Assembly (NCBI GenBank): GCA_963843975.1
Contig: CAWJMG010000003.1
Span: forward strand, 1,170,001-1,202,000
Source of the DNA: an uncultured Actinomycetes bacterium
GTDB lineage: Bacteria > Actinomycetota > Actinomycetes > S36-B12 > CAIYMF01
Direction of reading: 5' to 3'
DNA length: 32,000 nucleotides
Each line of letters opens with the position of its first letter. Within the stretch, counting starts at the first letter, position 1. A model generated the notes under the pieces. It was given only the letters and a program-made list of their open reading frames with translations. It was not told the DNA's origin and ran no database searches. This document shows, piece after piece, positions 10,757-25,098 of the stretch. The translations under genes and the position numbers were made by a program.

Positions 10757-10774
10757 CTCCGACCGCGAGTGCGG

Positions 10775-11371: not shown

Positions 11372-11419
11372 GTGCGCCTCCTGTGCTCGGCTACGTGCCG
11401 TCCGTGCGATGGGCGGGCG

Positions 11420-11602
11420 TCAGCTCGTGGCGTCGCGCAGGCCGTCCTTGACCTTCTCGCCGCTCTGCTTGACGTCTGCCTTGGCCTGGTCGAGCTTGCC
11501 CTCGGCCTCCAGCGACTCGTTGCCGGTCACCTTGCCCGTGGTCTCCTTGATGACGCCGCCGGCCTTCTCGGCGAGGTTCTTGGCCTTGTCCTCGGTGCTC
11601 AT
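11420..11602 (-). CDS. CsbD-family general stress protein
   Basis: 60 aa from ATG 11602 (AAGGAC RBS 9 nt upstream). MSTEDKAKNLAEKAGGVIKETTGKVTGNESLEAEGKLDQAKADVKQSGEKVKDGLRDA matches the CsbD signature. Confidence 0.85.
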   Translation of the reverse strand: MSTEDKAKNLAEKAGGVIKETTGKVTGNESLEAEGKLDQAKADVKQSGEKVKDGLRDATS

Positions 11603-11647
11603 GTCACGCACGTCCTTTCGCGTTGGATGAATAGTGCTTCCGTCCGG

Positions 11648-11673
11648 ATTCCCTTGCCCGGGTGGGGCTAAAC
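11648..11673 (-). promoter_or_regulatory. SigF/SigB-type promoter candidate P1: GTTT-N16-GGGAAT, upstream of csbD-like gene
   Basis: Minus strand reads GTTTAGCCCCACCCGGGCAAGGGAAT. The -10 element ends about 45 nt before ATG 11602. Confidence 0.6.
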
Positions 11674-11835
11674 GCCTTGCCGTGCAACGGGACCGGGCAG
11701 GGGTTCGGGCGACGGCCCCACGGGCGGTGCAGGGACCGGCGGCATCGGCTCCGGAGTCGGGACGACGGGCTCCGGCACGTCTGGGCCGGGCTCGACGGGC
11801 GGCACGGGGCCGGGCTCACCTGGGTCGTTGGTCAT
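11668..11835 (-). CDS. Small proline-rich hypothetical protein (55 aa); absent from the ORF track
   Basis: Hand translation: MTNDPGEPGPVPPVEPGPDVPEPVVPTPEPMPPVPAPPVGPSPEPLPGPVARQGV*. GAGGAG RBS 5 nt upstream. It has its own promoter motif (P2). GC3 is high. Confidence 0.45.
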   Translation of the reverse strand: MTNDPGEPGPVPPVEPGPDVPEPVVPTPEPMPPVPAPPVGPSPEPLPGPVARQGV

Positions 11836-11875
11836 GTCTGCTCCTCACGTGCGCCGCAGACGCGGCAGCGAAGGG

Positions 11876-11900
11876 ATGCCCCCGCGTCGGTGGGCCAAAC
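11876..11900 (-). promoter_or_regulatory. SigF/SigB-type promoter candidate P2: GTTT-N15-GGGCAT, upstream of the proline-rich small ORF
   Basis: Minus strand reads GTTTGGCCCACCGACGCGGGGGCAT. The -10 element ends about 40 nt before ATG 11835. Confidence 0.55.
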
Positions 11901-11918
11901 GCGCAGCATCCTCGTGAG

Positions 11919-13112
11919 CTACCCCACGGCGACGTCGTCGAGCCGATCGTGACCGGAAGAGGCGAGGTCCGCACCCAGTGCGTCGGCACGGGCGGTGTCC
12001 AGCGCTACTGCGACGAGGATCGCGGCACCATGGCGGTCGAACCGCTCCATGGCACGACGGTGCGCGGACCACGCCCAGGTGGAGCGGGCCGGGGTGTCGC
12101 GTCCGATCACGCGCAGCGCCCGAGCCAGCCGGCGCGGCTGCCCCGCCGGGAGGAGCAGGCCGGTGGTGCCGCTCTCGATGAGCTCGCGGACCCCCGGGAC
12201 GTCACTGGCGACGACCGGCGTGCCCGCCCACATGGCCGTGGCGATGAGCGACGACTCCGGACGGCCGTGCGGCAACGACACGACGAGGTCCGTGGACCGG
12301 ACGAGCACGCGCAGGCCCTCTCCGGAGGCCACGCGGACGAACCTGATGCGGTCGCCGGCGCGGAGGCCGCTCGCGAGCCGCGACCAACGGTCGACGAGGT
12401 GGGCGTCGGCCGCGTGCGCCTCGTCCACCGCCACACTCAGCCTCAGCTCCGGCAGGACGGCGACGGCGCGGATGACGTCACTGACGCCGGCGCCGCCGGC
12501 CCCGGACGTCGTCAGCACCGAGCCCGCGACGGCCTGGACCTCCCCCATGACCTTGCTTCCCTGGCCGGGGGTGGCCAGCTCCCACGGCACGACGTCGCAG
12601 CTCTCGCCGTCCACTCCTGCCCGTGCGAGCCGCTCGGCCTCGTCCAGGGAGCCCACGACGACGCGTGCGGCGCGCCGCGGGATCCACGGACCGACGGTTC
12701 CCGGCACGGAGCGCAGGTCGTCGGCGCCGGCGCTCCACACCCAGGGCACATGCAGATCGGGGCCTAGCCGCTCCAGCAGCTCCGCGGCGCCGCGCCCCAC
12801 GGCGAGTGCCACATCGATCCTGTTGGGGTCGATCACGTCCAGCAGCTGCTTGCGCCGGGTGCAGCGGACGACCGCCACAGCGGTGTCGACGCTCCCGGCA
12901 GTGCCGCGGGTGATCCTGTCGAGCATCTCCAGGGAGGGTGCACCCTGAGCCGGGCGTCGCCCTGCAGGCTGTCGGGCCTCGACGACGACCACATCGTGGC
13001 CGAGCGCCGCAAGATCGGTGCCGAGCTCCGCGACAGGGCGACGCAGCAGGGCGACGACCGTGTCCCGACCGCCCTGACGGGCACCCGCCTCGACCACCAG
13101 TGCTATCCGCAT
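11919..13112 (-). CDS. Glycosyltransferase, GT4/GT1-type (GT-B fold)
   Basis: 397 aa from the internal ATG (GGAGG RBS): MRIALVVEAGARQGG... The C-terminal 'ESSLIATAMWAGTPVVASDVPGVRELIESGTTGLLL' is the typical GT4 nucleotide-sugar binding region. Confidence 0.85.
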   Translation of the reverse strand: MRIALVVEAGARQGGRDTVVALLRRPVAELGTDLAALGHDVVVVEARQPAGRRPAQGAPSLEMLDRITRGTAGSVDTAVAVVRCTRRKQLLDVIDPNRIDVALAVGRGAAELLERLGPDLHVPWVWSAGADDLRSVPGTVGPWIPRRAARVVVGSLDEAERLARAGVDGESCDVVPWELATPGQGSKVMGEVQAVAGSVLTTSGAGGAGVSDVIRAVAVLPELRLSVAVDEAHAADAHLVDRWSRLASGLRAGDRIRFVRVASGEGLRVLVRSTDLVVSLPHGRPESSLIATAMWAGTPVVASDVPGVRELIESGTTGLLLPAGQPRRLARALRVIGRDTPARSTWAWSAHRRAMERFDRHGAAILVAVALDTARADALGADLASSGHDRLDDVAVG

Positions 13113-13164
13113 GCGGCTACCTCCATCGTGCTCGGACGAACGGGAGTGACGCGCAGACGACTCC

Positions 13165-13189
13165 GTTTGGTCGGGAGCGAGCAGGGAAC
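13165..13189 (+). promoter_or_regulatory. SigF/SigB-type promoter candidate P4: GTTT-N15-GGGAAC, pointing towards ORF 13364
   Basis: Plus strand reads GTTTGGTCGGGAGCGAGCAGGGAAC. It lies about 175 nt upstream of ATG 13364. Confidence 0.45.
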
Positions 13190-13295
13190 ACCCGAGATGT
13201 CGTGCGAGCACCCGCTGATTCGTGGCCCAGAGGCTCCGGACGCCATCACTGCTCCGCTCTCTCTGCGTGACACGCAACCACGCGGCGTCACCCCA

Positions 13296-13321
13296 GTACC
13301 CACAGCCGGAGAGCGGCAAAC
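13296..13321 (-). promoter_or_regulatory. SigF/SigB-type promoter candidate P3: GTTT-N16-GGGTAC, pointing towards the glycosyltransferase gene
   Basis: Minus strand reads GTTTGCCGCTCTCCGGCTGTGGGTAC. It lies about 180 nt upstream of ATG 13112. Confidence 0.55.
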
Positions 13322-13363
13322 AAGGACCGGACGCAGACCGTCACTGACAGGAGCGAAGGACCG

Positions 13364-13570
13364 ATGAGCACGCACCCCGTGGCCGGCCAAGCACCGGACG
13401 ACAACACCGATCAGAGCCAGCCCGAGCCGGACGCCTCATCCGACGGCGACGGCTCGTGGACCGACGACCCTCAGACGCAGGACCCGCACGAGGACCGGTC
13501 CGTCGAGGCCGTGATCCGACGCACGTCGCAGGGTGGCCCGAACGCGTTTCGCGACGGCAGCGACGGGTAG
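13364..13570 (+). CDS. Small acidic hydrophilic protein (68 aa), hypothetical
   Basis: AGGAGCGAAGGA RBS. MSTHPVAGQAPDDNTDQSQPEPDASSDGDGSWTDDPQTQDPHEDRSVEAVIRRTSQGGPNAFRDGSDG. Composition resembles hydrophilin-like stress proteins. Confidence 0.5.
   Translation: MSTHPVAGQAPDDNTDQSQPEPDASSDGDGSWTDDPQTQDPHEDRSVEAVIRRTSQGGPNAFRDGSDG
13546..13570 (+). promoter_or_regulatory. Relaxed SigF/SigB-type promoter candidate P5: GTTT-N15-GGGTAG, upstream of the YtxH-like gene
   Basis: Plus strand reads GTTTCGCGACGGCAGCGACGGGTAG. The -10 element overlaps the TAG stop of ORF 13364-13570 and lies 63 nt before ATG 13633. Confidence 0.4.
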
Positions 13571-13632
13571 TGCCGAGGCAGCGGCGGCGTCGTCCGACCC
13601 CGCCGAACGACAGCTCACCCCCGAGGGGAACC

Positions 13633-13944
13633 ATGAAGAAGCTCATCCTCCTGTCCGTTGGCGGCGCCGTCGGCTACGTGCTCGGCGCCCGTGCCGGACG
13701 CCCGGCGTACGACCGCATGAGCAACAGCTGGCAGGCCCTGACCCGCCGATCCGGCCTGGACGACCTCGCGTCGACCGCCAAGAGCGCGGCGACCGATGTC
13801 CGCGACGTCGCTGCCGAGCGCGCCTCGACCGCGATGGCCAAGGGCGCCGACGACCTGGCCCAGCGCATCGACAGCCTGGCTCCGACCCGCGGCAACGGGT
13901 CAGGCCCGGCCGAGGCGAGCCTGACGCACCCCACCGGCGTCTGA
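13633..13944 (+). CDS. YtxH-like membrane-anchored stress protein
   Basis: 103 aa from the internal ATG (GAGGGGAA RBS). The N-terminus MKKLILLSVGGAVGYVLGARAGRPAYDRM is the typical single-TM-plus-AGR motif of YtxH-like proteins, followed by an Ala-rich helical region. Confidence 0.65.
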   Translation: MKKLILLSVGGAVGYVLGARAGRPAYDRMSNSWQALTRRSGLDDLASTAKSAATDVRDVAAERASTAMAKGADDLAQRIDSLAPTRGNGSGPAEASLTHPTGV

Positions 13945-13952
13945 CCGACGCC

Positions 13953-14153
13953 ATGACCGAACCCGTGAGCGAGCAGGGGCACGAGCCCGACCAGGTCGCT
14001 GAGGACAAGGCGCGTCGCCAGCGCGACGAGCGTGAGGCCATCGCCGACGGCGGGGGCACCGGGGTCACCACCGACGAGCAGACCCGCCGCGAGTCGGGCT
14101 ACTCCACCGCGGACGATCAGGGCGCGGCCCAGCCGTCACCCGAGGGCTCGTGA
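13953..14153 (+). CDS. Small acidic hydrophilic protein (66 aa), hypothetical
   Basis: ATG 8 nt after the previous stop. MTEPVSEQGHEPDQVAEDKARRQRDEREAIADGGGTGVTTDEQTRRESGYSTADDQGAAQPSPEGS. High GC3, but no clear RBS. Confidence 0.45.
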   Translation: MTEPVSEQGHEPDQVAEDKARRQRDEREAIADGGGTGVTTDEQTRRESGYSTADDQGAAQPSPEGS

Positions 14154-14197
14154 CGGTGCTGACGACGGTGGCATCGACGACCGACGGCAGGCACCAG

Positions 14198-14222
14198 GTT
14201 TAGCCAGGCGTACGAAGGGCAT
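14198..14222 (+). promoter_or_regulatory. SigF/SigB-type promoter candidate P6: (G)GTTT-N15-GGGCAT, upstream of the GlsB/YeaQ-like gene
   Basis: Plus strand reads GTTTAGCCAGGCGTACGAAGGGCAT. The -10 element ends 46 nt before ATG 14269. Confidence 0.6.
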
Positions 14223-14268
14223 TCGAGGACCCGCGCCACCGATCGGGTGGCGGATCAAGGAGAAGAAC

Positions 14269-14538
14269 ATGCTCTGGTTCATCATCGTCACCATCGTGAT
14301 CGGCTTCATCGCCGGTCTCATCGCCCGGGCGATCCTGCCCGGCAACGACTCGATGGGGCTGCTCGCGACGACGGTCCTCGGCATCGTCGGGTCCCTGGTC
14401 GGAGGCTTCCTGGGCTACGCGCTCACCGGGGCCGACCGCGCCGACGGCGCCTTCCAGACCTCGGGCCTCATCGGGTCCGTCCTCGGCGCCATCGTCGTGC
14501 TGCTCCTGGTCCGGATGACACGCCGTGCTCGCACCTGA
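14269..14538 (+). CDS. GlsB/YeaQ/YmgE-family stress-response membrane protein
   Basis: 89 aa. AAGGAGAAG RBS. MLWFIIVTIVIGFIAGLIARAILPG...GIVGSLVGGFLG matches the family signature. Confidence 0.85.
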   Translation: MLWFIIVTIVIGFIAGLIARAILPGNDSMGLLATTVLGIVGSLVGGFLGYALTGADRADGAFQTSGLIGSVLGAIVVLLLVRMTRRART

Positions 14539-15112
14539 CCGCGGCACCGATCCGCAGCGCCCCGCCGGCGACTTCATCCGCGACGTCGAGACGCTGCGCG
14601 CCCAGGCACGCGCCAACATCGACAAGGGTGCCGTCACCGAGGCGTACAGCGGTGATGTCGACCGGGTCGTGCAGATGCTGCAGACCGCGCTGGCGACCGA
14701 GGTCGTGTGCGTCCTGCGCTACCGCCAGCACCACTACGCGGCTCGCGGTATGGACGCCGAGCCCATCGCGGCCGAGTTCCTCGTCCACTCGGAGGAGGAG
14801 CTGCGCCACGCGGGCATGATCGCCGCCCGCATCAGCCAGCTCGGAGGCACGCCCGACTTCCATCCCTCGACGCTGGAGGCGCGTTCGCACAGCCAATACG
14901 TCGAGGCCAACTCCTTGCGCGACATGGTGACGGAGAACCTCGTGGCCGAGCGTGTGGCCGTCGCGTCGTACACGGACATCATCGAGTGGCTCGGGTCCAG
15001 CGACCCCACCACCCGACGGATGCTCGAGGAGATCCTCGCCGTCGAAGAGGAGCACGCCGACGACCTGGTGTCGATGCTCGACGGCCTTCCGACACCGCGC
15101 ATCATCCGCTGA
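14525..15112 (+). CDS. Ferritin-like (bacterioferritin/Dps-superfamily) di-iron protein
   Basis: 195 aa. 'LQTALATEVVCVLRYRQHHY', 'AAEFLVHSEEELRHAGMIAARISQLGGTPDF' and 'EEILAVEEEHADDLVSML' provide the ExxH metal-site helices. The GTG start overlaps the glsB-like stop by 14 nt. Confidence 0.85.
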   Translation: MLAPDRGTDPQRPAGDFIRDVETLRAQARANIDKGAVTEAYSGDVDRVVQMLQTALATEVVCVLRYRQHHYAARGMDAEPIAAEFLVHSEEELRHAGMIAARISQLGGTPDFHPSTLEARSHSQYVEANSLRDMVTENLVAERVAVASYTDIIEWLGSSDPTTRRMLEEILAVEEEHADDLVSMLDGLPTPRIIR

Positions 15113-15154
15113 CCGCTGGCTCATCGCCGCACGGCAGCACAACCTGGAGGAACC

Positions 15155-15307
15155 ATGATCGTTCTCGGACTCATCCTCGTCCTCGTCGGATGGATCGCGC
15201 ACGTGTCGATCCTCGTCACGCTCGGCGTCATCCTCGCCGTCGTCGGCGTCGTCCTCGCCCTCGTCGGGCGCACCCGCCCCGTCGCCGGCCGGGCCCACTG
15301 GTTCTAG
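15155..15307 (+). CDS. Small two-TM membrane protein (50 aa); absent from the ORF track
   Basis: GGAGGAACC RBS. Hand translation: MIVLGLILVLVGWIAHVSILVTLGVILAVVGVVLALVGRTRPVAGRAHWF*. Confidence 0.5.
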   Translation: MIVLGLILVLVGWIAHVSILVTLGVILAVVGVVLALVGRTRPVAGRAHWF

Positions 15308-15331
15308 GCACCACCGCTCGACCGCACGTCC

Positions 15332-15366
15332 ACGAGGGCGCGCCCGCACTGCGGGCGTGCCCTCGT
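15332..15366 (+). terminator. GC-rich hairpin (16-bp stem, one mismatch, 3-nt loop) after the glsB/ferritin/small-membrane operon
   Basis: ACGAGGGCGCGCCCGC-ACT-GCGGGCGTGCCCTCGT, 25 nt after the stop at 15307. There is no U-tract, which is common for actinobacterial terminators. Confidence 0.5.
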
Positions 15367-15390
15367 CGTCCTCCTGGGCGGTCTCACGGG

Positions 15391-15415
15391 GTTTGAGCGG
15401 TCCACCACGGGGCAT
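15391..15415 (+). promoter_or_regulatory. SigF/SigB-type promoter candidate P7: (G)GTTT-N15-GGGCAT, upstream of the GAF-PP2C phosphatase gene
   Basis: Plus strand reads GTTTGAGCGGTCCACCACGGGGCAT. It lies about 67 nt before GTG 15483. Confidence 0.6.
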
Positions 15416-15482
15416 ACCGGTGGTACGCGTACGGCCTCGACCTCGGAGCCGCCGCCGCGTCGACCGCGAGGGGGTGGTTGCA

Positions 15483-17261
15483 GTGCCGCTCGACAGCGCC
15501 ACCGACGCCCTCATCGCGCTGGCGGCCGACCTCGCCGGCGCGACCGACACGACAGCGGTCGTCGACGTCATGACCGCGCAGTGCCCGCCCCTCCTGGGGG
15601 CAAGCATGGTCACCGTCTCCCTCGTCGAGGAGGACGGGCAGACGCTGAGGCTCGTCGCGTCGGTCAACACGCCCACCCCCGTCGTGCTGGCGTTCGACAC
15701 GTACGAGACCGGGCTGCACCTTCCCGCCGGCGACGCCCTCCGTTCCGGCGAGCCGGTCGTCGTGCACACCGTGCAGGAGCTCCACGCGCGCTACCCGTCG
15801 CTGGCCGACGTCGACCTCGAGCACTCGGCGCTGGCCGTTCTGCCCCTCGAGCACGACAGCACACCGCTCGGCGTCCTCGGCCTCGGCTGGTGCGACACCG
15901 ACGAGATGACCCCCGACGTCCTCGCGATGGCGGGATCGGTCACCATGCTCTGCTCGGCCGCGCTGCGCCGCGTGATCGCCGCCGAGCACCCTGGTCGCGA
16001 GCGCAGCCGCGCCGAAGCAGCGCTCGCCAGTCTTCGCTCGTTGCAGGCCGTCGCCGCCGAGCTCGCCCACACGGTCGACCTCTCACAGGCCGGCGCCGTG
16101 GTGCTCGAGCACGCCGTGACAGCGCTGGGCGCGGAGGCCGGCGCGCTCAACGTGCTCGACGAGGACGGCGTCGAGTGCACGCAGATCGCCACGGTCGGCA
16201 TGAGCGGCTCGCCCGTCTCCGACTGGTCGACCTGGCAGGTGCGCGACTCGTCCCTCGCACGCGAGCTGGTCCGCACCGGGCTGCCGATCCTCATCACCGA
16301 CGCCATGAACCAGCGCGAGCGGTTCCCCGATCTCGACGTCCACGAGCTGCCGCAGCAGGCGTGGGCCAACCTGCTGCTGGTGTCCGGCTGCCGCAACCTC
16401 GGGATCGTGTCGATCGGATGGCGCGAGCCGCGCGAGTTCGGCAGTGAGGACGTGTCGTTGCTGCAGACGCTCGCCGACCACCTGGCCGCGGCCCTGGACC
16501 GCAACCGCCTCATGTCCTCGAACGACGCCCTGCTCACCGAGAGCACCCGCGTGGCGGAGACACTGCAGCGCTCGCTCATGCCCGGGCCGCTGCCCGAGTG
16601 GCCGGGGGTCGACCTGGCCGCGGGGCTGCAGCCCGCGGAGACCGGCACGGAGGTCTGCGGCGACTTCTACGACGCCTTCCCGGCTCTGGACGGCTCGCTG
16701 GTCGTCGTGATCGGCGACGTCGCCGGGCGCGGTGTGACCGCCGCAGGGCTCACCGGCATGGTGCGGCACACGCTGCGGGCGCTCGCCCGCGACATGCCGC
16801 CGGCCGAGGCCCTGAGCCGGCTCAACCGGGCGCTGGTCGAGGGCGCCTGGGCAGACGAGCCCCGACTGCTCACAGCGGCGATGCTGCGGCTCACGCGCCG
16901 CGAGGAGGGGCTGCACGTGGAGATCTCGCTCGCGGGGCACTGCCTGCCCGTGGTGGTGCGCGACCACGTCGCCGCGCACGTCGGCGACCCGGGCATGCTC
17001 CTCGGCGCGTTCGCCGACGTGCGGATCGGGACGGCGTCCGTCGACCTCTCCCCCGGCGACGTGCTGCTGCTGCACACGGACGGCGTCACCGAGGCGCGCA
17101 GGCACGGCATCGAGTTCGGCGAGGCGCGGCTGCTCAAGATGCTCGGCGCGCTCGCCGACCCGCGCCCCGCGGACACCGTGGAGCACGTGCTCGGGTCGGT
17201 CGACTGGTACCGCACGACCGCACCGGACGACATGGCCGTGCTCGTTCTGCGCGCGACCTAG
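15483..17261 (+). CDS. GAF-GAF-PP2C (SpoIIE-type) serine phosphatase, RsbU/RsbP-like partner-switching input
   Basis: About 592 aa from GTG 15483 (GAGGGGG RBS). There are two GAF-like N-terminal regions. The C-terminal 'EVCGDFYDAF...VVIGDVAGRGVTAAGLTGMVRHTLRA...LLLHTDGVTEA' matches PP2C/SpoIIE motifs. Confidence 0.85.
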   Translation: MPLDSATDALIALAADLAGATDTTAVVDVMTAQCPPLLGASMVTVSLVEEDGQTLRLVASVNTPTPVVLAFDTYETGLHLPAGDALRSGEPVVVHTVQELHARYPSLADVDLEHSALAVLPLEHDSTPLGVLGLGWCDTDEMTPDVLAMAGSVTMLCSAALRRVIAAEHPGRERSRAEAALASLRSLQAVAAELAHTVDLSQAGAVVLEHAVTALGAEAGALNVLDEDGVECTQIATVGMSGSPVSDWSTWQVRDSSLARELVRTGLPILITDAMNQRERFPDLDVHELPQQAWANLLLVSGCRNLGIVSIGWREPREFGSEDVSLLQTLADHLAAALDRNRLMSSNDALLTESTRVAETLQRSLMPGPLPEWPGVDLAAGLQPAETGTEVCGDFYDAFPALDGSLVVVIGDVAGRGVTAAGLTGMVRHTLRALARDMPPAEALSRLNRALVEGAWADEPRLLTAAMLRLTRREEGLHVEISLAGHCLPVVVRDHVAAHVGDPGMLLGAFADVRIGTASVDLSPGDVLLLHTDGVTEARRHGIEFGEARLLKMLGALADPRPADTVEHVLGSVDWYRTTAPDDMAVLVLRAT

Positions 17262-18163
17262 GTCCCCGAGCGGCCCTCGTGGGCGGCGAGCTCCAGAGCC
17301 TCCGCCAGAGTCCGCTGCGCGAGACCTCCGCCCTCCACCTGAGCCCACGTCACCGGTGTCGCCGCCGTGGGGCTCTCCCTGCCGCGCAGGGACCACGGCA
17401 CGATCGTCGTCTTGGCGGGATTGTTCTGGCTCCAGTCGACCAGCACCCTGCCGGGTCGCAGCTCACGCGCCTGCCGGGTCACGACCAGGTCGGGCAAGCC
17501 CACCTCGAGAGCGCGGGCGAGGGTGTGCGCGTAGTCCGACACCGACCCCACGCGTGCCACCGCCTCGGACGCATCGCCGGGCGTGAGGTCGGCGTACAGC
17601 TGCAGCCCCTTCGAGCCGCTGGTCACCGCGCGGGCGACGAGGCCGTCAGCTGCCAGCAGGTCGCGAGCGGCGATGGCCACCTCGGCGCAGGCGTCCAGAC
17701 CTGCGGGCGCGCCGGGGTCGAGATCCACCACGAGCCGGTCGGGAAGCAGCGGCTCGCCCGTGGCCCTGTCGGCCCGCCACTGGGGCGCGTGGAGCTCGAG
17801 GGCGCCGGACTGCGCCAGCCAGACCAGCACGGCCTCGTCGTCGACCAGCGGGTAGTCGAGGTCCCGCGGAGGACGACCCGACCGCTCCCCCGTGTGGTGC
17901 TGCGTCATGCGCGGCACCCACTCGGGGGTGCCGCGCGGAAGGTTCTTCTCGATGAACGGCTCATGGTCGACGCCGTCCGGCCATCGCTTGCGCGTGACCG
18001 GACGGTCGCGCAGCTCGGGGAGGATCCGCGGCGCGACGCCGAGGTAGTACTGCAGCACGTCGGCCTTGGTGGTGCCGGTGCTCGGGTAGAGCACCTTGTC
18101 GAGGTTCGTCACGCGGACCTCGCGCCCGGCGACCGTCACCGAGCCGCCCGCCGACGCGCTCAT
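17258..18163 (-). CDS. Stand-alone LigD polymerase/primase domain protein (NHEJ PolDom)
   Basis: 301 aa. 'VRVTNLDKVLYPSTGTTKADVLQYYLGVAPRILPELRDRPVTRKRWPDGV' is the typical LigD-Pol N-terminus. Its stop shares a CTAG with the convergent phosphatase stop. Confidence 0.85.
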   Translation of the reverse strand: MSASAGGSVTVAGREVRVTNLDKVLYPSTGTTKADVLQYYLGVAPRILPELRDRPVTRKRWPDGVDHEPFIEKNLPRGTPEWVPRMTQHHTGERSGRPPRDLDYPLVDDEAVLVWLAQSGALELHAPQWRADRATGEPLLPDRLVVDLDPGAPAGLDACAEVAIAARDLLAADGLVARAVTSGSKGLQLYADLTPGDASEAVARVGSVSDYAHTLARALEVGLPDLVVTRQARELRPGRVLVDWSQNNPAKTTIVPWSLRGRESPTAATPVTWAQVEGGGLAQRTLAEALELAAHEGRSGT

Positions 18164-18189
18164 GCCGCGGCACCGGTGCTGCCGGGCCA

Positions 18190-18215
18190 GGTTTGGTGCT
18201 CGTGGTTCACGGGAA
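18190..18215 (+). promoter_or_regulatory. SigF/SigB-type promoter candidate P8: (G)GTTT-N16-GGGAAT, upstream of ku
   Basis: Plus strand reads GTTTGGTGCTCGTGGTTCACGGGAAT. The -10 element ends 40 nt before ATG 18256. Confidence 0.6.
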
Positions 18216-18255
18216 TCTCCCTCGTTGGTGTCCTGACGGTGCGAGGAGAGCGGCC

Positions 18256-19302
18256 ATGCAGTCGATGTGGAAGGGGTCCGTCTCGTTCGGGCTCGTCAAC
18301 GTACCGGTGAAGCTGCACGCCGCGACCGAGGATCACGACGTCCGCTTCCACCAGGTGCACGCCGCAGACGGAGGCCGCGTGAAGATGGTGCGCACCTGCT
18401 CGGTCGACGGCCAGCCGGTCGCGTACGACGAGCTCGCCAAGGCGTACGAGACGCCGGGCGGCGAGCTGGTGGTCATGGACGACCGCGACTTCGACAGCCT
18501 TCCCGTGCGCGGCAAGCGCGAGATCGACGTGCTGGAGTTCGTCCCGTCCGACCAGGTCGACCCTGTCCTCTTCGACCGCAGCTACTACCTGGAGCCCGAG
18601 CCGCGCGCCCTCAAGCCGTACGTGCTGCTGCGCGAGGCTCTGCGGACCACCGAGCGCACGGCCCTCGTCCGCGTCGTGCTGCGGCAGAAGTCCCAGCTGG
18701 CGGCGCTGCGGGTCCGCGACGACGTCATCCTCCTGCAGACCATGCTCTGGCCGGACGAGGTGCGCAGCCCGACCTTCGGCGTGCTGGACGCCGATGCCGA
18801 GATCCGCCCGCAGGAGCTCGCGATGGCGTCGTCCCTGATCGACAGCCTGGCCGGCGACTTCGACCCCGATCGCTTCCACGACGAGTACCGCGAGGCGCTG
18901 CTCGAGGTGATCGACCGCAAGCTCGCCGGCGGTGGCGGCGTGCCCTCGGAGGTCGCAGCCGCGGGCGAGGACGACGGCGACGCGATCGTCGTGGACCTGA
19001 TGGCAGCGCTGCGCGAATCGGTCAAGCGCAGCGGGCGCACCGACGCTGCAGCAGAGCGGCGCCCATCGCCGACCGCCAGACCCGTCAAGGACGCGGCTCC
19101 GAAGAAGAAGGCCGGTCAGCGGACGGCCGCTGCGGCAGAGCCGGCGAAGCGAGCCAGCACGGCGACCCGCGCGAGCGCGGCGAAGAAGACCAGCCGGTCC
19201 ACCACGTCCACGAAGGCCGCAGGTGCCTCCGCAGGGGCCAAGCGCTCGACCACGAAGAAGGCGGCGGCGTCGGCCAAGCAGAGCAAGCGCCGCAGCGCCT
19301 GA
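18256..19302 (+). CDS. ku: Ku protein (NHEJ DNA end-binding) with Lys/Ala-rich basic C-terminal tail
   Basis: 348 aa from ATG 18256 (GAGGAGAG RBS). MQSMWKGSVSFGLVNVPVKLHAATEDHDVRFHQVH is the canonical bacterial Ku N-terminus. The tail is rich in KKK/AKR repeats. Confidence 0.9.
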   Translation: MQSMWKGSVSFGLVNVPVKLHAATEDHDVRFHQVHAADGGRVKMVRTCSVDGQPVAYDELAKAYETPGGELVVMDDRDFDSLPVRGKREIDVLEFVPSDQVDPVLFDRSYYLEPEPRALKPYVLLREALRTTERTALVRVVLRQKSQLAALRVRDDVILLQTMLWPDEVRSPTFGVLDADAEIRPQELAMASSLIDSLAGDFDPDRFHDEYREALLEVIDRKLAGGGGVPSEVAAAGEDDGDAIVVDLMAALRESVKRSGRTDAAAERRPSPTARPVKDAAPKKKAGQRTAAAAEPAKRASTATRASAAKKTSRSTTSTKAAGASAGAKRSTTKKAAASAKQSKRRSA

Positions 19303-19441
19303 CCCGGCGGCTGCGTCTCCCACCTCGACCTCCCGGACCGGATGTGGCGCCCGGGACGGGAGGGGGGTCTCGCCCCGGGCACCCTGGGGTTACCCGGCGC
19401 CCAGGCCGCGAAACCCGGTGAGCAGCCGAGTCCGCCGTCGG

Positions 19442-21556
19442 TCAGGAGGGCTGCTGGTGGGCCACGAACGGCGTCACGCTGCGCGCGCCCGCCTCGCGGA
19501 GCAGGGCACCGGCGAGGGTCGCCGTCCAGCCGCTGCGCCAGGTCTCGTCGACCAGGAGCACGGGACCCTCGGGCACGGCGGCACCGGGAACGAGCGAGAT
19601 GCGCGCCGCCTGCGCGCACGCCCGGGCCGCGGGTGACAGGTCGGGCCGCGGAGGCGGACCGGCCAGCGAGACCGCTTGTACGAGCGGCACGCCGATCCCC
19701 TGCGCGATCGTCGAGGCGAGCGACTGCACGAGTCTCGGGTGCCGGGTGCTCGGGATCGGCACGACGGCCTCGAGCCGCTGCGGGAGCGAGGGCAGCCAGC
19801 GGCCGAACGCACGCTGGAGCGCGGCCAGCAGCCAGTCGGGGGCAGGCCCGTCGGGTGCCGATGGCCCGGTGACCGTGGCCATGAGCTCCCAGGCGGGGTC
19901 GTCGGCGAAGGCCAGCGCGCGGCCGGGCGCCAGGGCGAGCGACGGCGCGATCCGCCCACGCCACTGCGATCTGCCGCTCGCGGCATCGATCCCCGAGGTG
20001 AACATCTTGCGCGGCTCGAGCGGCACGACGAGGTCGCGCAGCCAGGCCCGGGCGGCCTCGCGCGACTCGGGGTCGCTGGTGGCGGGCAGCCCGGCGGGCA
20101 ACGAGCCGGTGCAGACCGAGCAGCGGCCGCACCGCTCCCCCGGTGTCGTCGGGTCGTCGAGCGAGCGACGCAGCAGCACCTCGAGGCAGTCGCCGCCGCG
20201 CACGTACTCGCGCATGATGTCCGACTCGCGCCGGCGCACAGCGACGAGCGCGTCGTACTTCTCGTGGTCGTAGGACCACTCCTGCCCGGTAGCGGCCCAC
20301 GACGTTCCCTCGCGCGCTACCGCGCCGTCGACGGCCAGCACCTTCACGAGCAGCTCGACGCGGGTGCGACGTACGCCGGTCGCCGCCTCGAGCGCGGGCA
20401 CGCTCATCGGCCCCTGCTCGCGGAGCGCGCCGAGCACGGCAGCGGCCTCGTCGGGCTTCGGCACGCTCGCGGTGGCGAACCACTCCCACAGCCGCTCGTC
20501 GGAGTCGCCCGGCAGCAGCACCACGCTCGCCTCGGGCAGCGCACGGCCGGCACGCCCGACCTGCTGGTAGTAGTCGACGGGCGACGACGGCGACCCCACA
20601 TGGATGCAGAAGGCGAGGTCGGGCTTGTCGTAGCCCATGCCGAGCGCCGAGGTCGCGACCACGGCCTTGAGCTCGTTGGCCTTCAGCGCTGCCTCGATGC
20701 GCGCGCGGTCGGCGGTCTCGGTCTTGCCGGAGTACGCCGCCACCGCGTGCCCGCGCTCGGCGAGGAAGCCCGCGAGCCGGTCGGCGTCGGCGACGGTGAG
20801 GCAGTAGACGATCCCCGAGCCGGGCAGCAGGCGGAGCGCCTGGTCGGTCCAGGCATACCGGTCGAGCGAGCTGAGCCCGGGCAGCACGCCGAGGTGCAGC
20901 GACTCGCGCGCGAGCCGGCCGCGCTGCACGAAGGTGTTGTCGCCCAGCTGCTGCGCGACGTCGGCCGTCACACGGGAGTTGGCGGTGGCGGTGGTGGCCA
21001 GCACCGGGAGCTCGGGATTGGCGAGCAGAAGCCCGGCGATCCGCTGGTAGTCGGGCCGGAAGTCGTGTCCCCACGAGGAGATGCAGTGCGCCTCGTCGAT
21101 CACGAGCAGGCCGAGGCGCGGGAGCAGGACGTCGAGCACGGTGGCGGAGAAGCGCGGGTTGGCGAGGCGCTCGGGCGACACGAGGAGAACGTCGACGTCG
21201 CCCGCCATGAGCGCGCGCTCGACGTCCGGCCAGTCGTCGAGGTTGCCGGAGTTGAGCGTCGCCGCGGTGAGCCCGGCGCGCTGCGCCGCCGCGACCTGGT
21301 CGCCCATCAGCGACAGCAGCGGCGACACGACGAGCACGGGGCCTCCACCGGCGTCGCGCACGGCTCGGGCCGCGATCCAGTAGACGGCCGACTTGCCCCA
21401 CCCCGTGGCCTGGACGACGAGGGCGCGACGTCGCTCCAGCACGAGCGCCGCCACCGCCGCGCGCTGGTCGTCGCGCACGACGGCTTCCGGCCCCGCGAGC
21501 GCGGTGATGACGCGGGTGGCCGCGGCGTCGAGCAGCTCGGGCGTCACGACGGTCAT
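19442..21556 (-). CDS. RecQ-family (RqlH-like) ATP-dependent DNA helicase with Cys-cluster and C-terminal ComF/PRTase-like domain
   Basis: 704 aa from ATG 21556. Walker A ATGWGKS, DEAH box (VIDEAHCISSWGHDFRPDY), TATA motif and QQVGRAGR. Cys cluster CGRCSVC. The C-terminus 'VVPIPSTRHPR...GPVLLVDETWRSGWTATLAGALLREAGA' resembles the ComF/type-I PRTase fold. The remaining 449 aa of track ORF 19442-22903 are non-coding read-through. Confidence 0.85.
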   Translation of the reverse strand: MTVVTPELLDAAATRVITALAGPEAVVRDDQRAAVAALVLERRRALVVQATGWGKSAVYWIAARAVRDAGGGPVLVVSPLLSLMGDQVAAAQRAGLTAATLNSGNLDDWPDVERALMAGDVDVLLVSPERLANPRFSATVLDVLLPRLGLLVIDEAHCISSWGHDFRPDYQRIAGLLLANPELPVLATTATANSRVTADVAQQLGDNTFVQRGRLARESLHLGVLPGLSSLDRYAWTDQALRLLPGSGIVYCLTVADADRLAGFLAERGHAVAAYSGKTETADRARIEAALKANELKAVVATSALGMGYDKPDLAFCIHVGSPSSPVDYYQQVGRAGRALPEASVVLLPGDSDERLWEWFATASVPKPDEAAAVLGALREQGPMSVPALEAATGVRRTRVELLVKVLAVDGAVAREGTSWAATGQEWSYDHEKYDALVAVRRRESDIMREYVRGGDCLEVLLRRSLDDPTTPGERCGRCSVCTGSLPAGLPATSDPESREAARAWLRDLVVPLEPRKMFTSGIDAASGRSQWRGRIAPSLALAPGRALAFADDPAWELMATVTGPSAPDGPAPDWLLAALQRAFGRWLPSLPQRLEAVVPIPSTRHPRLVQSLASTIAQGIGVPLVQAVSLAGPPPRPDLSPAARACAQAARISLVPGAAVPEGPVLLVDETWRSGWTATLAGALLREAGARSVTPFVAHQQPS

Positions 21557-22407
21557 GCGGACGCCTGGTCGATGGAGCCGACGAGTGCGGCGAGGGCGGC
21601 ACCCAGCCGCGCCACCTCGGCCGGGATCGGAGCGCCGTCGGGGTCGAGGTACTGGTCGCGCCGGATCTCGACCATGACCGACGAGACCCGTTCGTCGGTG
21701 CCGAAGTGGCGCAGCGGCACGTAGGTGCCCGCGAAGGGCTGGTCGACCGCGACCTCCCACGCCGCGAACGCCTCGATCGCGTTGCGCCGCAGCCACTCGG
21801 GGCTGTGCCGGCCGTCGAACCCGAGGCAGACGGCCGGGCGGGCGGCGTGCGGGTGCCGCTCGTAGGGCAGGAGGTCGCGCGGGTAGGAGTGGACGTCGAG
21901 GATCACCGCCCGGCCGTGCGCCTCGAGGCGGGCCGACACGAGATCGGCGAGCGAGGCGGCGTACGGCTCGAAGTAGCGCGCGAGGAGGTCGGCCCGGTGC
22001 GTGGGGTCTGGCTCGCGCAGACGGGCGAGGTGCGACGTGGCGGTGTACACGGCGCCCATGCCGATCGCGTTCATCTCCTCCTCGTCGGGATCGGTGAAGC
22101 GCTCCGGGTCGATGACGAGGCGCGACAGCCGGTTGACGAACGACCAGGGCCGCACCGACGTGACCGCCGCCGCGTGCTCGGCGATGCGGTCGGTGGCGGC
22201 GTCGGTCATCGCGCGCAGCTCGGCGGTCAGCGCGGCGTCGTCCAGCAGGATCCGCGCCCGGACGTCGTCCGGGATCGCGGTGGCCGAGTGCGGCACGTGC
22301 AGAACGACCCACGACGACGGGTCGCCGGCGACGACGTCGAACGAGGACAGCTGCGGGTGCGTCACGGGGACGACCGTAGGCGACACGTCCGACGACTGCG
22401 CAGCCAC
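21553..22407 (-). CDS. N-formylglutamate amidohydrolase (FGase) family protein
   Basis: 284 aa, GTG start. 'VVLHVPHSATAIPDD' and 'ILDVHSYP' are the characteristic FGase-family motifs. Its stop overlaps the helicase start (ATGA at 21553-21556). Confidence 0.8.
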   Translation of the reverse strand: MAAQSSDVSPTVVPVTHPQLSSFDVVAGDPSSWVVLHVPHSATAIPDDVRARILLDDAALTAELRAMTDAATDRIAEHAAAVTSVRPWSFVNRLSRLVIDPERFTDPDEEEMNAIGMGAVYTATSHLARLREPDPTHRADLLARYFEPYAASLADLVSARLEAHGRAVILDVHSYPRDLLPYERHPHAARPAVCLGFDGRHSPEWLRRNAIEAFAAWEVAVDQPFAGTYVPLRHFGTDERVSSVMVEIRRDQYLDPDGAPIPAEVARLGAALAALVGSIDQASA

Positions 22408-22453
22408 GTGGCGCGGCGCACGGCGACCTCCCCGGATCTACCATGACAACGAT

Positions 22454-22478
22454 GTTTGACCGTCCGTGCGCAGGGTAC
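22454..22478 (+). promoter_or_regulatory. SigF/SigB-type promoter candidate P9: GTTT-N15-GGGTAC, upstream of the second RsbW-like/STAS pair
   Basis: Plus strand reads GTTTGACCGTCCGTGCGCAGGGTAC. It overlaps the track-predicted start at 22466, which argues that the real start lies further downstream. Confidence 0.65.
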
Positions 22479-22507
22479 TGGGATCCCATCAGGTGCGCTC
22501 GAGCGAT

Positions 22508-22954
22508 GTGACCAGCCGAAGGACCGTTGTGACGCAGAGGCGGCAGCCCTCCGCCACCGACCGTGGTCGGGTGGCGATGACCCTCGCCCTCGACGAGGTC
22601 GGGCGGGCGGGGTGGCGGTCGGAGATGCGGAGCGCGCTCGTCGGTGCCAGGTCTCCGGACATCGTCGAGGACGCCATCCTGGTAGCAGGCGAGCTCGTGG
22701 CCAACGCCGTGGAGCACGGTCTGCCGCCGGCATCGCTCGAGCTCGCAGCAGAGCCTGGTGGCCCGGTGCTCGTGAGCGTGCACGATCACGGCGCTCCTGT
22801 GCCCCTGGCCCCGGTGGCGTTCTCGCACGAAGCGGTGCGCGGACGCGGACTGCTGATCGTCGACTCGCTCAGCAGCGAGTGGGGCGTGCGCGAGACCGAG
22901 CACGGCAAGGCAGTGTGGGCCCGCGTGGCTCAGCAGGACGGGACAGGATCATGA
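22508..22954 (+). CDS. RsbW-type anti-sigma factor / HATPase_c serine kinase (second paralogue)
   Basis: N-box GELVANAVEHG, 'VHDHGAP' and 'RGRGLLIVDSLSSEWG'. The start is uncertain: GTG 22508 or ATG 22577. 22466 is rejected because it lies inside the promoter motif. Confidence 0.7.
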   Translation: MTSRRTVVTQRRQPSATDRGRVAMTLALDEVGRAGWRSEMRSALVGARSPDIVEDAILVAGELVANAVEHGLPPASLELAAEPGGPVLVSVHDHGAPVPLAPVAFSHEAVRGRGLLIVDSLSSEWGVRETEHGKAVWARVAQQDGTGS

Positions 22955-23295
22955 CGACCAACGAAAGGCATACGCCCATGGGAACCGCACCGGTCGTGAT
23001 CACGCTCGAGGGCGAGTACGACATCGCGAACGCACCCGAGCTGCTCGAGATCCTCACCGGCAGCGGCCAGGAGGCGACTGTCGTCGCCGACCTCACCGGG
23101 GTCACGTTCCTCGACTCCGCGGCGCTGTCTCAGCTCGTCCGCGCCAACTCCCAGCTGTCCGAGGGCGGCGGATCGCTGACCCTCGTGCTGCCGAGCAGCG
23201 GCCCGGTGGCGCGGGTCATGTCGATCACCCAGCTCGACTCGGCGCTCACCACGACCCGCTCGCTCGAGCAGGCCGTGGCGGACCTCGGCGCCTGA
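22951..23295 (+). CDS. STAS-domain anti-sigma-factor antagonist (second paralogue)
   Basis: 114 aa. ATGA overlap with the preceding kinase gene. 'VVADLTGVTFLDSAALSQLVRAN' is the STAS phospho-site region. Confidence 0.85.
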   Translation: MTTNERHTPMGTAPVVITLEGEYDIANAPELLEILTGSGQEATVVADLTGVTFLDSAALSQLVRANSQLSEGGGSLTLVLPSSGPVARVMSITQLDSALTTTRSLEQAVADLGA

Positions 23296-23361
23296 CGCCG
23301 GCCGCAGCCGCCGGTCGACGCCGGTCGACGCGGGGGCGGCGTACCGCCGGTCAGTGAACGG

Positions 23362-24240
23362 CTAGTCCTCGAGAAGGCCCTCCCGGAGCACGGCGAGCGA
23401 CTTGGCGAGCAGGCGAGACACGTGCATCTGCGAGATGCCGACCTCCTCGGAGATCTGCGTCTGCGTCATGCCGTGGAAGAACCGCAGCACCAGGATCCGT
23501 CGCTCGCGCGCCGGCAGCTGGGCGAGCAGCGGGCGCAGCGACTCGCGGTACTCGATGGTCTCGATCTGCGGATCGTCGGCGCCCATGAGGTCGACGAGCG
23601 AGGTGGAGTCGTCGGACGAGCCGACGTGCGCATCGAGGCTCGTGTAGCTGTAGGCCTGGGCGCCCTCGAGACCCTCGAGCACCTCCTCCTCGCTGATGCC
23701 GAGGTGCTGGGCGAGCTCGGCCACGGTCGGCGAGCTGCCCGTGCGCTGCGACAGCTCGGCCGTGGCCTGCCCCAGCGTCATGCGCAGCTCCTGCAGCCGG
23801 CGGGGCACCCGGATCGCCCAGCCCTTGTCGCGGAAGTGCCGCTTGATCTCCCCGACGACCGTGGGCGTCGCGTACGTCGCCAGCTCGACCCCGCGCTCGG
23901 GCTCGAACCTGTCGACTGCCTTGAGCAGGCCGATCATCCCGACCTGGGTGAGGTCCTCCACCGGCTCGCCGCGGTCGCGGAACCGGCGGGCGAGGTACTG
24001 AACCAGGGGGATGTGCAGGGTGACGAGCTCGCTGCGTGCGCGCTGGTGCTCGGCGGAGTCGACGTCGGACGACGCGAGCACCTCGAGGAGGTCGCGCTCG
24101 CGCGCCCGGTGCGCGTCGGACCAGCCTCGCGGCAGCACGACGTCGGGCCCGGAGTCCTGACCGGGCTCGACGTCGGGGGCGCCGTCGGGCGCGGCTCCGC
24201 CCGTCGACGGCGGTTCGGCGTGAGCCGTGGGAGGCGTCAC
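23362..24240 (-). CDS. SigB/SigF/SigG-family (group 3) RNA polymerase sigma factor, SigF-like
   Basis: 292 aa from GTG 24240 (GTGA overlap with the anti-sigma stop). Region 2 'DLTQVGMIGLLKAVDRFEPERGVELATYATPTVVGEIKRHFRDKGWAIRVPRRLQE'. Region 4 'RRILVLRFFHGMTQTQISEEVGISQMHVSRLL'. Confidence 0.9.
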   Translation of the reverse strand: MTPPTAHAEPPSTGGAAPDGAPDVEPGQDSGPDVVLPRGWSDAHRARERDLLEVLASSDVDSAEHQRARSELVTLHIPLVQYLARRFRDRGEPVEDLTQVGMIGLLKAVDRFEPERGVELATYATPTVVGEIKRHFRDKGWAIRVPRRLQELRMTLGQATAELSQRTGSSPTVAELAQHLGISEEEVLEGLEGAQAYSYTSLDAHVGSSDDSTSLVDLMGADDPQIETIEYRESLRPLLAQLPARERRILVLRFFHGMTQTQISEEVGISQMHVSRLLAKSLAVLREGLLED

Positions 24241-24626
24241 GAAGGGTCCGCGACGCTGATGGATCGCTTGGCGCGCAGGGAGATGGTGACGCCGTCCGGC
24301 GTCTCCTCGGCCCACAGGTCGACGACGAGCGCGGCGAGCACCGCCCAGGCGAAGCTGTCCTCACGAGGGACGACGGAGCTCTCGCACTTCCCGGTGACGC
24401 TGATGAGGACACCGTCGGGCTCGAGCTCGAACCGCGCGTCGATCACGGTGCCGGGCTGAGCGTTCGCGGCCAGGAGACCCGCCGCCTCCCCCACAGCGAG
24501 ACGGACGTCCTCGAGCTGCTCGAGGTCGAAGCCCGCACGTGAGGCCACGGCGACCGCCGTGGACCGTACGAGGGACACCCAGCCGGTCTCGGCGGGCACG
24601 GACAGTCGAACGGTGCTCTGGGTCAT
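24237..24626 (-). CDS. UsfX/RsbW-like anti-sigma factor (degenerate HATPase fold)
   Basis: 129 aa. GAGGAG RBS. 'DVRLAVGEAAGLLA', 'SFAWAVLAALVVDL' and 'ISLRAKR' resemble mycobacterial UsfX as I recall it. I could not find an E-x3-N-x3-H N-box or a GxGxG motif. Translationally coupled to the sigma gene. Confidence 0.7.
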   Translation of the reverse strand: MTQSTVRLSVPAETGWVSLVRSTAVAVASRAGFDLEQLEDVRLAVGEAAGLLAANAQPGTVIDARFELEPDGVLISVTGKCESSVVPREDSFAWAVLAALVVDLWAEETPDGVTISLRAKRSISVADPS

Positions 24627-24744
24627 CCGTGCTGCTCCTCGTCGCAGGTGTGCGTCGTGCCCGCGACGCTAACGCGAGGGGCGGCCCGCCACCAGCGTGC
24701 GGACGGCACGCTCGACGGGACCTGGGCACAGGGCACGAGGGCTA

Positions 24745-24770
24745 GTGCCCCGCTTTCAGGGATCCCAAAC
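24745..24770 (-). promoter_or_regulatory. SigF/SigB-type promoter candidate P10: (G)GTTT-N16-GGGCAC, upstream of the anti-sigma/sigma operon (autoregulation candidate)
   Basis: Minus strand reads GTTTGGGATCCCTGAAAGCGGGGCAC. It lies about 119 nt upstream of ATG 24626. Confidence 0.55.
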
Positions 24771-24932
24771 CTCGGAATCCACCGGATCGCCGGCCGGGGG
24801 CCGGACGCGGCCCTGAGCGATCAGCCTCCGGGTCTGTCTCTCGCCGGCCGGTTGCCGTGTCGTCGCAGCTGACCATCCGGGAACCCGCGACAGGCCAAGA
24901 AAGAACCGGTATTCGGCGTCGCTTCGGCTGCC

Positions 24933-25040: not shown

Positions 25041-25098
25041 GCGACCTAGAGCTGCCGATCTCGATCGCTTCCGGGGCTCGGCTGCCTAAGGTGGCCGG

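Follow-up and report, generated by a model that had tools for sequence, protein, structure and literature searches.

A predicted self-activating SigF-type regulon island, with partner-switching regulators and ku, in an uncultured actinomycete

The closest described counterpart of the locus presented here is the SigF system of Mycobacterium smegmatis (Humpel 2010; Singh 2015; Oh 2020), where the promoter consensus is GTTT-N14-19-GGGTA and the experimentally derived promoters also take the forms GGGCA and GGGAA, at a 15- or 16-nt spacing (PMC4694148). A nearly unbroken run of promoters of this consensus extends across MSMEG_1766-1804, includes an RsbW paralogue and ends in chaB-rsbW-sigF, giving about 15 consensus promoters within roughly 40 genes beside sigF; the targets of SigF include a transglycosylase-associated protein, Dps, a RecQ helicase and RsbW paralogues, and mycobacterial SigF regulons comprise more than 100 genes (PMC4694148). 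The organism has three RsbW homologues, these being the co-transcribed anti-sigma factor RsbW1, the kinase RsbW2 beside RsfB, and RsbW3 beside RsfA, and a PP2C phosphatase is found nearby in the network (PMC7693655). In Bacillus subtilis, a promoter of the same general form is Pctc, GTTTAA-N14-GGGTAT (PMC8346170). Here we describe an island of about 15 kb in a window of 32,000 nt (the whole stretch of DNA analysed) from an uncultured soil Actinomycetes bacterium (S36-B12; CAIYMF01) related to Longivirga, namely positions 1,170,001-1,202,000 of the forward strand of contig CAWJMG010000003.1 in assembly GCA_963843975.1. The island encodes a sigma factor of the SigB/SigF/SigG family (23362-24240, minus strand) together with regulators of the partner-switching type and a number of predicted effectors, and it carries nine strict and two relaxed copies of a promoter-like motif. 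We consider it likely that the strict copies are promoters of the SigB/SigF class, and that the relaxed ones probably are too; the most likely reader of all of them is the sigma factor encoded among them. The best reading of the island as a whole would then be a self-activating SigF-type regulon island under partner-switching control.

In common with M. smegmatis, the locus has GTTT-N15/16-GGG(T/C/A)A promoters, an anti-sigma gene predicted to share a transcript with the sigma gene, three homologues of RsbW, of which two adjoin STAS antagonists, and a PP2C phosphatase. The same types of gene recur as well: a transglycosylase-associated protein, Dps, a RecQ helicase and RsbW paralogues. It differs in being smaller and denser, with 11 sites in 13 kb, in preferring GGGCA as the -10 element, in having a promoter in front of ku, which is absent from the published M. 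smegmatis SigF list, and in having a phosphatase with GAF sensor domains rather than a receiver domain; moreover, the sigma factor falls below the cut-off of a SigF subfamily model (NF005514). A first-pass annotation of this DNA had regarded such tight clustering as unusual. This view is not supported, because the MSMEG_1766-1804 run beside rsbW-sigF already puts a dense island of SigF targets next to the sigma gene on record (PMC4694148). Nor can the island be called an almost complete regulon map, as was also proposed: 32 kb is insufficient for this, given the size of the mycobacterial regulons and the extra members held by relatives.

The locus also shares with the SigB system of Bacillus the sigma family (TIGR02980), the promoter logic and a parts list of HATPase_c_2, STAS and PP2C proteins. 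It belongs to a different phylum, however, with a spacer of 15-16 nt as against about 14, with regulators in four transcription units rather than in one rsb operon, and with the stressosome genes RsbR, RsbS and RsbT absent from the window. The effector types of B. subtilis SigB, including CsbD and Dps-like proteins, match those of the island.

The promoter class is read here as a -35 element GTTT(G/A), a spacer of 15-16 nt and a -10 element GGGNA(C/T). A search of both strands of the window with the pattern GTTTN{15,16}GGGNAY gives exactly nine matches, all of them within 11648-24770. They are the same nine that the first-pass annotation had listed, and its two relaxed matches (GGGTAG and GGGTAA) were likewise found where it had placed them. 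In 100 dinucleotide-preserving shuffles, 0.06 matches are expected, with a maximum of 1. The tetramer GTTT is indeed as rare in this GC-rich DNA as had been remarked: counting both strands, the 32 kb contain 17 copies, 11 of them in sites of one kind or the other, strict or relaxed. When GTTT and GGGNAY were kept constant and spacers of 10 to 22 nt were allowed between them, five sites came out at 15 nt and four at 16 nt, and the lengths 10-14 and 17-22 gave no match in the window. As an empirical background, 78 ku-anchored loci from other actinobacteria were used, amounting to 1.33 Mb with a GC content of 65-76%. A weight matrix built from the sites has nine matches of at least 18 bits in the window and none in this background, and at a threshold of 16 bits the background rate is 0.07 per 32 kb. 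That the matches arose by chance, or merely from the base composition of GC-rich DNA, is refuted by these counts, and by the retention of the sites at orthologous positions described below; we give this idea practically no weight.

The placement of the sites is equally regular. Eight of the nine strict sites are wholly intergenic, and the ninth covers the last 6 nt of a Pro-rich open reading frame (ORF); this can be set against an intergenic share of only 10% in the region 9934-24800. Every strict site is co-oriented with the downstream gene, the start codon of which is provided with a purine-rich ribosome-binding site and lies 39-183 nt further on. All nine agree with the features that define SigF/SigB-class promoters, these being a -35 element GTTT or GGWWT, a spacer of about 14-17 nt and a -10 element resembling GGGTAY. 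The flanks of the window (1-9900 and 24800-32000) contain ordinary metabolic and transport genes and no sites. A scan of the island for consensus sigma-70 promoters found none of this type, and a terminator scan gave one terminator-like match, inside a gene, which is uninformative in GC-rich DNA.

The sigma factor (292 aa) scores 301.6 bits against TIGR02980, the model for the SigB/SigF/SigG family, well above the cut-off of 234.35. Pfam assigns residues 97-312 of the long ORF to Sigma70_r2, r3 and r4, with no region 1.1/1.2, and the N-terminal 60 or so amino acids form a low-complexity extension. Among solved structures, its nearest relatives are 8x6g_H and the SigF chain of 1l0o. In region 4, 47 of 66 residues (71%) are identical to the SigF of PDB entry 8jzt, and the -35 recognition helix, GISQMHVSRLLAKSLA, is fully identical to that protein, which fits recognition of the same -35 element.

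The regulators surround the sigma gene on both sides and extend to the far end of the island. RsbW1 (24237-24626, minus strand) is an anti-sigma-like HATPase_c_2 protein whose stop codon overlaps the sigma start by 4 nt. It scores 28.0 against PF13581 (cut-off 27.4), with weak matches to RsbW equivalog models besides, and by eye it has no obvious kinase boxes, as is also the case for the kinase-negative mycobacterial RsbW1/UsfX. RsbW2 (22529-22954, plus strand), another HATPase_c_2 protein, has the N-box ELVANAVEH, and is followed by STAS2 (22951-23295, plus strand), an anti-sigma-factor antagonist that scores 57.9 against TIGR00377 (cut-off 53.45). The second pair consists of RsbW3 (9934-10332, minus strand), a third HATPase_c_2-like protein related to the RsbA family, and STAS3 (10430-10756, minus strand), a second antagonist, with a score of 57.6 against the same model. 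Inspection by eye gives both RsbW2 and RsbW3 an N-box and a G2-like GRGL box, with a degenerate G1 box. STAS2 (FLDS) and STAS3 (FVDS) carry the (F/L)xDS motif, in which the phospho-serine was assigned by eye rather than by alignment. Finally, the putative input phosphatase (15483-17261, plus strand) has two GAF domains followed by a SpoIIE/PP2C domain (E = 4.6e-37).

Relatives were sampled by a ku-anchored scan with one genome per species, which gave 80 loci: L002, from a 'Candidatus Nanopelagicales' metagenome-assembled genome (MAG); L003, from Longivirga aurantiaca (family Sporichthyaceae); and the 78 others (L004-L081). Only the two closest, L002 and L003, have the whole island in the same order, with protein identities to the window of about 50-90%. 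The island is also carried by L091 (GCA_964269125), which was reached through a search with the sigma factor (84% identical), making four island genomes with the window; for the syntenic island of L002, L003 and L091, protein identities come to about 70-90%. Within 20 kb there are eight strict sites in L002 and nine in L003, as against eight in the other 78 loci together. The promoters of ku, the PP2C gene, csbD and the acidic small ORF are strict in each genome that covers them, whereas those of rsbW1-sig, RsbW2-STAS2, the GT4 glycosyltransferase and the Pro-rich ORF are strict in some genomes and elsewhere mostly one base off (GGGTAA, GGGTAG or GGGCAG). In the intergenic alignments, the GTTT and GGGNA blocks and the ribosome-binding sites are preserved amid diverged spacers and flanks. 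This is the pattern to be expected of functional promoters, not of repeats.

It might still be argued that the bipartite motif is a transcription-factor binding site or a dispersed repeat, and not a sigma promoter. Nothing specific speaks in favour of this, and we think it very improbable, because the two halves are asymmetric, the spacing is strictly 15 or 16, each site is oriented like the gene that follows it, and the motif is the same as the SigF/SigB consensus defined by experiment. In addition, the spacer sequences are unrelated between sites, so the sites are not copies of a repeat. The central proposal of the first-pass annotation, that SigB/SigF-class promoters are clustered here with a SigF-like sigma gene and partner-switching regulators, is supported by each of the tests made, these being the statistics, the placement, the conservation in three relatives, the family score of the sigma factor and its recognition helix.

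A further alternative accepts the sites as genuine SigB/SigF-class promoters and proposes that they are read mainly, or also, by paralogous SigB-like sigma factors, the local sigma gene being one target among many. In Streptomyces coelicolor, almost all of 24 tested promoters are read by at least two of nine SigB homologues, and GTTT...GGGTAC promoters by up to six (PMC8346170). This cross-recognition speaks for the alternative, and no sequence feature ties a promoter to a particular paralogue. There are further likenesses to that organism: both are actinobacterial, the motif type GTTT...GGG(T/C)A(C/T) is shared, and in both a Dps gene lies under a SigB-like promoter, the Streptomyces example being dpsA (PMC3184153). 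However, the Streptomyces targets are dispersed, with overlapping paralogues, whereas those here are contiguous with one sigma gene. The sigma operon itself carries the motif and is linked to the targets in all four island genomes, and the three RsbW-like genes, the two STAS genes and the PP2C gene are all in the island, as in a self-contained module. We regard a reading of the sites mainly, or also, by paralogues as rather unlikely.

Several points nevertheless weigh against assigning these promoters to a SigF-type system driven by the local sigma factor, the Streptomyces cross-recognition being one of them. The sigma factor scores 310.1 bits against the SigF subfamily model NF005514, under the cut-off of 372, and is consequently filed as a member of the SigB/F/G family and not of that SigF subfamily. 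In 26 sites from three genomes, the fourth base of the -10 element is C in 14, T in eight and A in four, while the mycobacterial consensus favours T. Sigma orthologues with 72-77% identity (L092 and L093) are found in a different context, with DAGK, WhiB and PdtaS genes, and no motif is present within 10 kb of either (20 kb scanned). Lastly, the start sites and the dependence on this sigma factor, like the wiring of the switch and the inducing signals, are matters of inference from the arrangement of genes and motifs.

Genes were called by third-position GC first, and by Pfam and NCBIfam afterwards. These confirm the gene labels of the first-pass annotation, except that its 'YtxH-like' label has no Pfam support. 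Starting from the left of the island, the site P1 (11648-11673, minus strand; GTTT-N16-GGGAAT) is 45 nt upstream of csbD, which encodes a CsbD-like stress protein (11420-11602, minus strand), and is strict at the orthologous place in L002 (4411) and L003 (1932). P1 probably drives a single operon made up of csbD, the gene for an SRPBCC (Polyketide_cyc) protein (10775-11371, minus strand), STAS3 and RsbW3. The last two genes are separated by 97 nt (10333-10429, minus strand), in which GGGTAC follows GTGG or GGTG at a distance of 15-16 nt; a weak promoter of this class, internal to the operon, may lie here, with a score below the matrix threshold. The site P2 (11876-11900, minus strand; GTTT-N15-GGGCAT) is 40 nt upstream of the Pro-rich small ORF (11668-11835, minus strand), the C-terminal part of which shows codon-periodic conservation in the alignment. 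The counterpart of P2 in L003 (2148) has the relaxed form GGGCAG, and that in L002 (4653) is weak. The -35 element of P1, GTTTAG (11668-11673), includes the stop codon TAG of this ORF in the window, in L002 and in L003.

The gene for the GT4 glycosyltransferase (11919-13112, minus strand) has its site 183 nt upstream (13296-13321, minus strand; GTTT-N16-GGGTAC), strict in L003 (3826) and relaxed in L002 (6044). On the other strand, the site at 13165-13189 (GTTT-N15-GGGAAC) is 174 nt upstream of an acidic small ORF (13364-13570, plus strand) that is conserved in L003, and is strict at the orthologous places in L002 (5941) and L003 (3443). The relaxed site P5 (13546-13570, plus strand; GTTT-N15-GGGTAG) sits within the 3' end of the acidic ORF, 62 nt upstream of a small gene for a membrane-anchored coiled-coil protein (13633-13944, plus strand). 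P5 is not conserved as such; in L003 the orthologue has a second GT4 gene in front of it, and a strict site lies ahead of that GT4 gene instead. The next gene, for a hydrophilic 66-aa protein (13953-14153, plus strand), has a strict site of its own in L002 and L003. A site 46 nt upstream of the Transgly_assoc (GlsB/YeaQ-type) gene (14269-14538, plus strand) is at 14198-14222 (plus strand; GTTT-N15-GGGCAT), and is strict in L003 (5919) and L091 (20784). Downstream of this gene are those for a ferritin/Dps-like protein (14525-15112, plus strand) and a 50-aa DUF6131-like small membrane protein (15155-15307, plus strand).

Three of the regulatory units have sites of their own besides P1. That of the GAF-GAF-PP2C gene (15391-15415, plus strand; GTTT-N15-GGGCAT), 67 nt upstream, is strict in L002 (7147), L003 (7127) and L091 (19578). 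That of the RsbW2-STAS2 operon (22454-22478, plus strand; GTTT-N15-GGGTAC), about 50 nt upstream, is strict in L003 (14663) and has the relaxed form GGGTAA in L002 (14126) and L091 (11714). The third (24745-24770, minus strand; GTTT-N16-GGGCAC) is 118 nt upstream of the anti-sigma/sigma operon and is the predicted autoregulatory site; it is strict in L002 (16416) and L091 (9423) and relaxed in L003 (16928). The leader between this last motif and the start codon has a strongly conserved block at about 24640-24690 (minus strand), GCGTTAGCGTCGCGGGCACGACGC, within which are a hexamer of the TANNNT type (TAGCGT) and an inverted repeat of 6 bp. In M. smegmatis there is a SigF-independent promoter just upstream of rsbW-sigF (PMC7693655), and by analogy the block may be a second, housekeeping-type promoter, or else an RNA element. 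Two genes inside the island, for a RecQ-family helicase (19442-21556, minus strand) and an N-formylglutamate amidohydrolase (FGase)-family protein (21553-22407, minus strand), have no motif.

These assignments suggest how the island might operate. In the unstressed cell, the co-transcribed RsbW1 would sequester the sigma factor. Under stress or starvation, the two STAS proteins, the two further RsbW-like proteins and the GAF-GAF-PP2C phosphatase would bring about its release: unphosphorylated STAS proteins would relieve the hold of RsbW1 on the sigma factor, RsbW2- and RsbW3-type proteins would modulate the STAS proteins through phosphorylation or binding, and the phosphatase would feed a small-molecule or redox signal into the switch. 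The freed sigma factor would transcribe its own rsbW1-sig operon, and also the phosphatase gene, RsbW2-STAS2 and csbD-SRPBCC-STAS3-RsbW3, setting up feedback loops. With the promoter in front of the phosphatase gene, of both RsbW/STAS units and of the sigma operon itself, the response, once activated, should amplify itself at first, and fresh anti-sigma factor should dampen it afterwards. The protective set transcribed at the same time would consist of CsbD, the Dps-like ferritin, the GlsB-type protein, the small hydrophilic and membrane proteins, the GT4 glycosyltransferase and Ku, the last of which would serve end-joining repair. Such a set of effectors, comprising a DNA-binding ferritin, CsbD, small membrane and hydrophilic proteins, Ku and a glycosyltransferase, points to the protection of cells that are desiccated or have ceased to grow.

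The inclusion of ku deserves separate comment. Ku, which has a Lys/Ala-rich tail, is encoded at 18256-19302 (plus strand), divergently from a stand-alone LigD primase-polymerase (17258-18163, minus strand). The ku promoter (18191-18216, plus strand; GTTT-N16-GGGAAT) is 39 nt upstream of the start codon, and is strict in L002 (9938), L003 (9936) and L091 (16768). Control of ku by stress or sporulation sigma factors has precedents. In B. subtilis, SigG, from the same sigma family, controls ku (ykoV) (PMC6379672, PMC5124664), so that a sigma factor of this family drives ku there, together with ykoU/ligD. In Sinorhizobium meliloti, ku3-ku4 and ligD4 are under the general stress sigma factor RpoE2, which makes non-homologous end joining stress-inducible (PMC6379672). 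The predicted arrangement here is like the latter in placing ku in a general stress regulon through a dedicated alternative-sigma promoter, but RpoE2 belongs to an unrelated sigma family (EcfG-type ECF) with an unrelated motif, and here ku alone has the motif, its divergent LigD primase-polymerase gene being without one.

Outside the clade, ku retains only the LigD primase-polymerase gene as a neighbour, and in L004-L081 there is no comparable site directly upstream of ku, barring two sites with one mismatch (L041, 9964-9989; L071, 6660-6685). Together with the lack of motifs around the sigma homologues of L092 and L093, this indicates that the autoregulated island, including its predicted ku promoter, is lineage-specific. 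On this comparison the ku promoter itself looks lineage-specific, and, apart from L041 and L071, the clade would provide a clean example of recruitment to a regulon. SigF/SigB-type partner-switching stress islands are known; what is new here is an unstudied actinobacterial lineage (Longivirga and soil 'Nanopelagicales' MAGs), for which we provide a sequence-level map of the core general-stress module, with lineage-specific recruitment of ku. The case adds an actinobacterial ku with a SigB/F/G-class promoter to the control of ku by SigG in Bacillus and RpoE2 in rhizobia, and supports the view of bacterial end joining as a stress or dormancy function. The island leaves the understanding of such systems unchanged. 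It may be added that the divergent pair of LigD primase-polymerase and ku (17258-19302 in the window) is common to many actinobacterial genera (L004-L081), and that a SigF-type site in the shared 92-nt intergenic region is found only in the Longivirga-like clade, and only on the ku side.

The second relaxed site (19390-19414, minus strand; GTTT-N15-GGGTAA) had been called an orphan; it lies between the stop codons of ku and the recQ-family gene. It is conserved at the same place in L002 (where it is strict), L003, L091 and the metagenome contig L082, and judged by this conservation it is not accidental. About 6 nt after its -10 element begins a near-invariant 38-nt hairpin with a C-rich loop (19346-19383, minus strand). 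The promoter-hairpin unit as a whole is at 19346-19414 (minus strand) in the window, 11015-11084 in L002, 11047-11115 in L003, 15277-15345 in L091 and 568-631 in L082. The 40-nt hairpin fold has a predicted energy of about -31 kcal/mol (z -3.9 to -8), while the 87 nt downstream of the promoter, folded as a whole, do no better than shuffles (z = -1.0). A search of the whole window at Rfam gathering thresholds gave no family match, and a permissive search round the site gave only microRNA matches to the hairpin, which were judged meaningless. A metagenome scan for the hairpin gave nine loci, of which one (L082) is a true homologue, with an identical stem.

L091 and L082 have a small gene behind the unit, which serves as its leader; the gene encodes a basic protein of about 108 aa that matches Rho_N weakly, and its Shine-Dalgarno sequence, GGGGAGG, complements the loop of the hairpin. 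This gene is absent from the window, L002 and L003, where the promoter and hairpin are kept. The stem in the window shows two A-to-G changes; in the minus-strand RNA these produce G-U pairs, and on the plus strand they would produce C-A mismatches, which hints that the hairpin is selected in the minus-strand transcript. The unit may be what is left of a leader; otherwise it would be a small RNA or an antisense RNA beside ku. Because the hairpin is kept where the small protein gene is absent, a short RNA is conceivable; transcribed from the putative sigma-dependent promoter, it could act against a Shine-Dalgarno sequence or as an antisense to the 3' end of ku.

A second possible layer of RNA-level control arises from the promoters of the acidic ORF (13165, plus strand) and the GT4 gene (13296, minus strand), which face each other, each being inside the predicted leader of the other. 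Consequently, the predicted leaders overlap in antisense, by about 90 nt in the window, about 60 nt in L002 and about 350 nt in L003, the face-to-face spans being 13165-13321, 5941-6069 and 3443-3851, respectively. Expression of the GT4 gene and that of the small-protein operon would in this way be coupled, or each would limit the other. One may tentatively go further, and regard the island as a self-contained cassette for stress that a lineage related to the Sporichthyaceae has inherited vertically, that has recruited non-homologous end joining (ku) and that carries two extra layers of control at the RNA level; in this full form the proposal is a doubtful one. The hairpin and the face-to-face promoters are the sole parts of the locus that might hold something new.

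The relatives have extra island members that are absent from the window, namely a hemerythrin, the second GT4 glycosyltransferase and the small Rho_N-like protein (L003, 4129-5341 and 11140-11553; L091, 14772-15256), which means that the content of the island varies among close relatives. The second GT4 gene of L003 sits behind a strict site. The hemerythrin gene has a relaxed GGGTAG site upstream in L091 and L082, and none upstream in L003. An origin of the island as a mobile element was considered and ruled out, since the GC content is uniform, there is no tRNA or integrase gene, and the gene order is kept in the relatives. Beyond the sigma operon, and adjoining it, is a DUF222 gene (25959-27368, plus strand). 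Proteins with this domain are commonly HNH-endonuclease-associated and 13E12-like. The gene occupies the same position in L002, L003 and L091.

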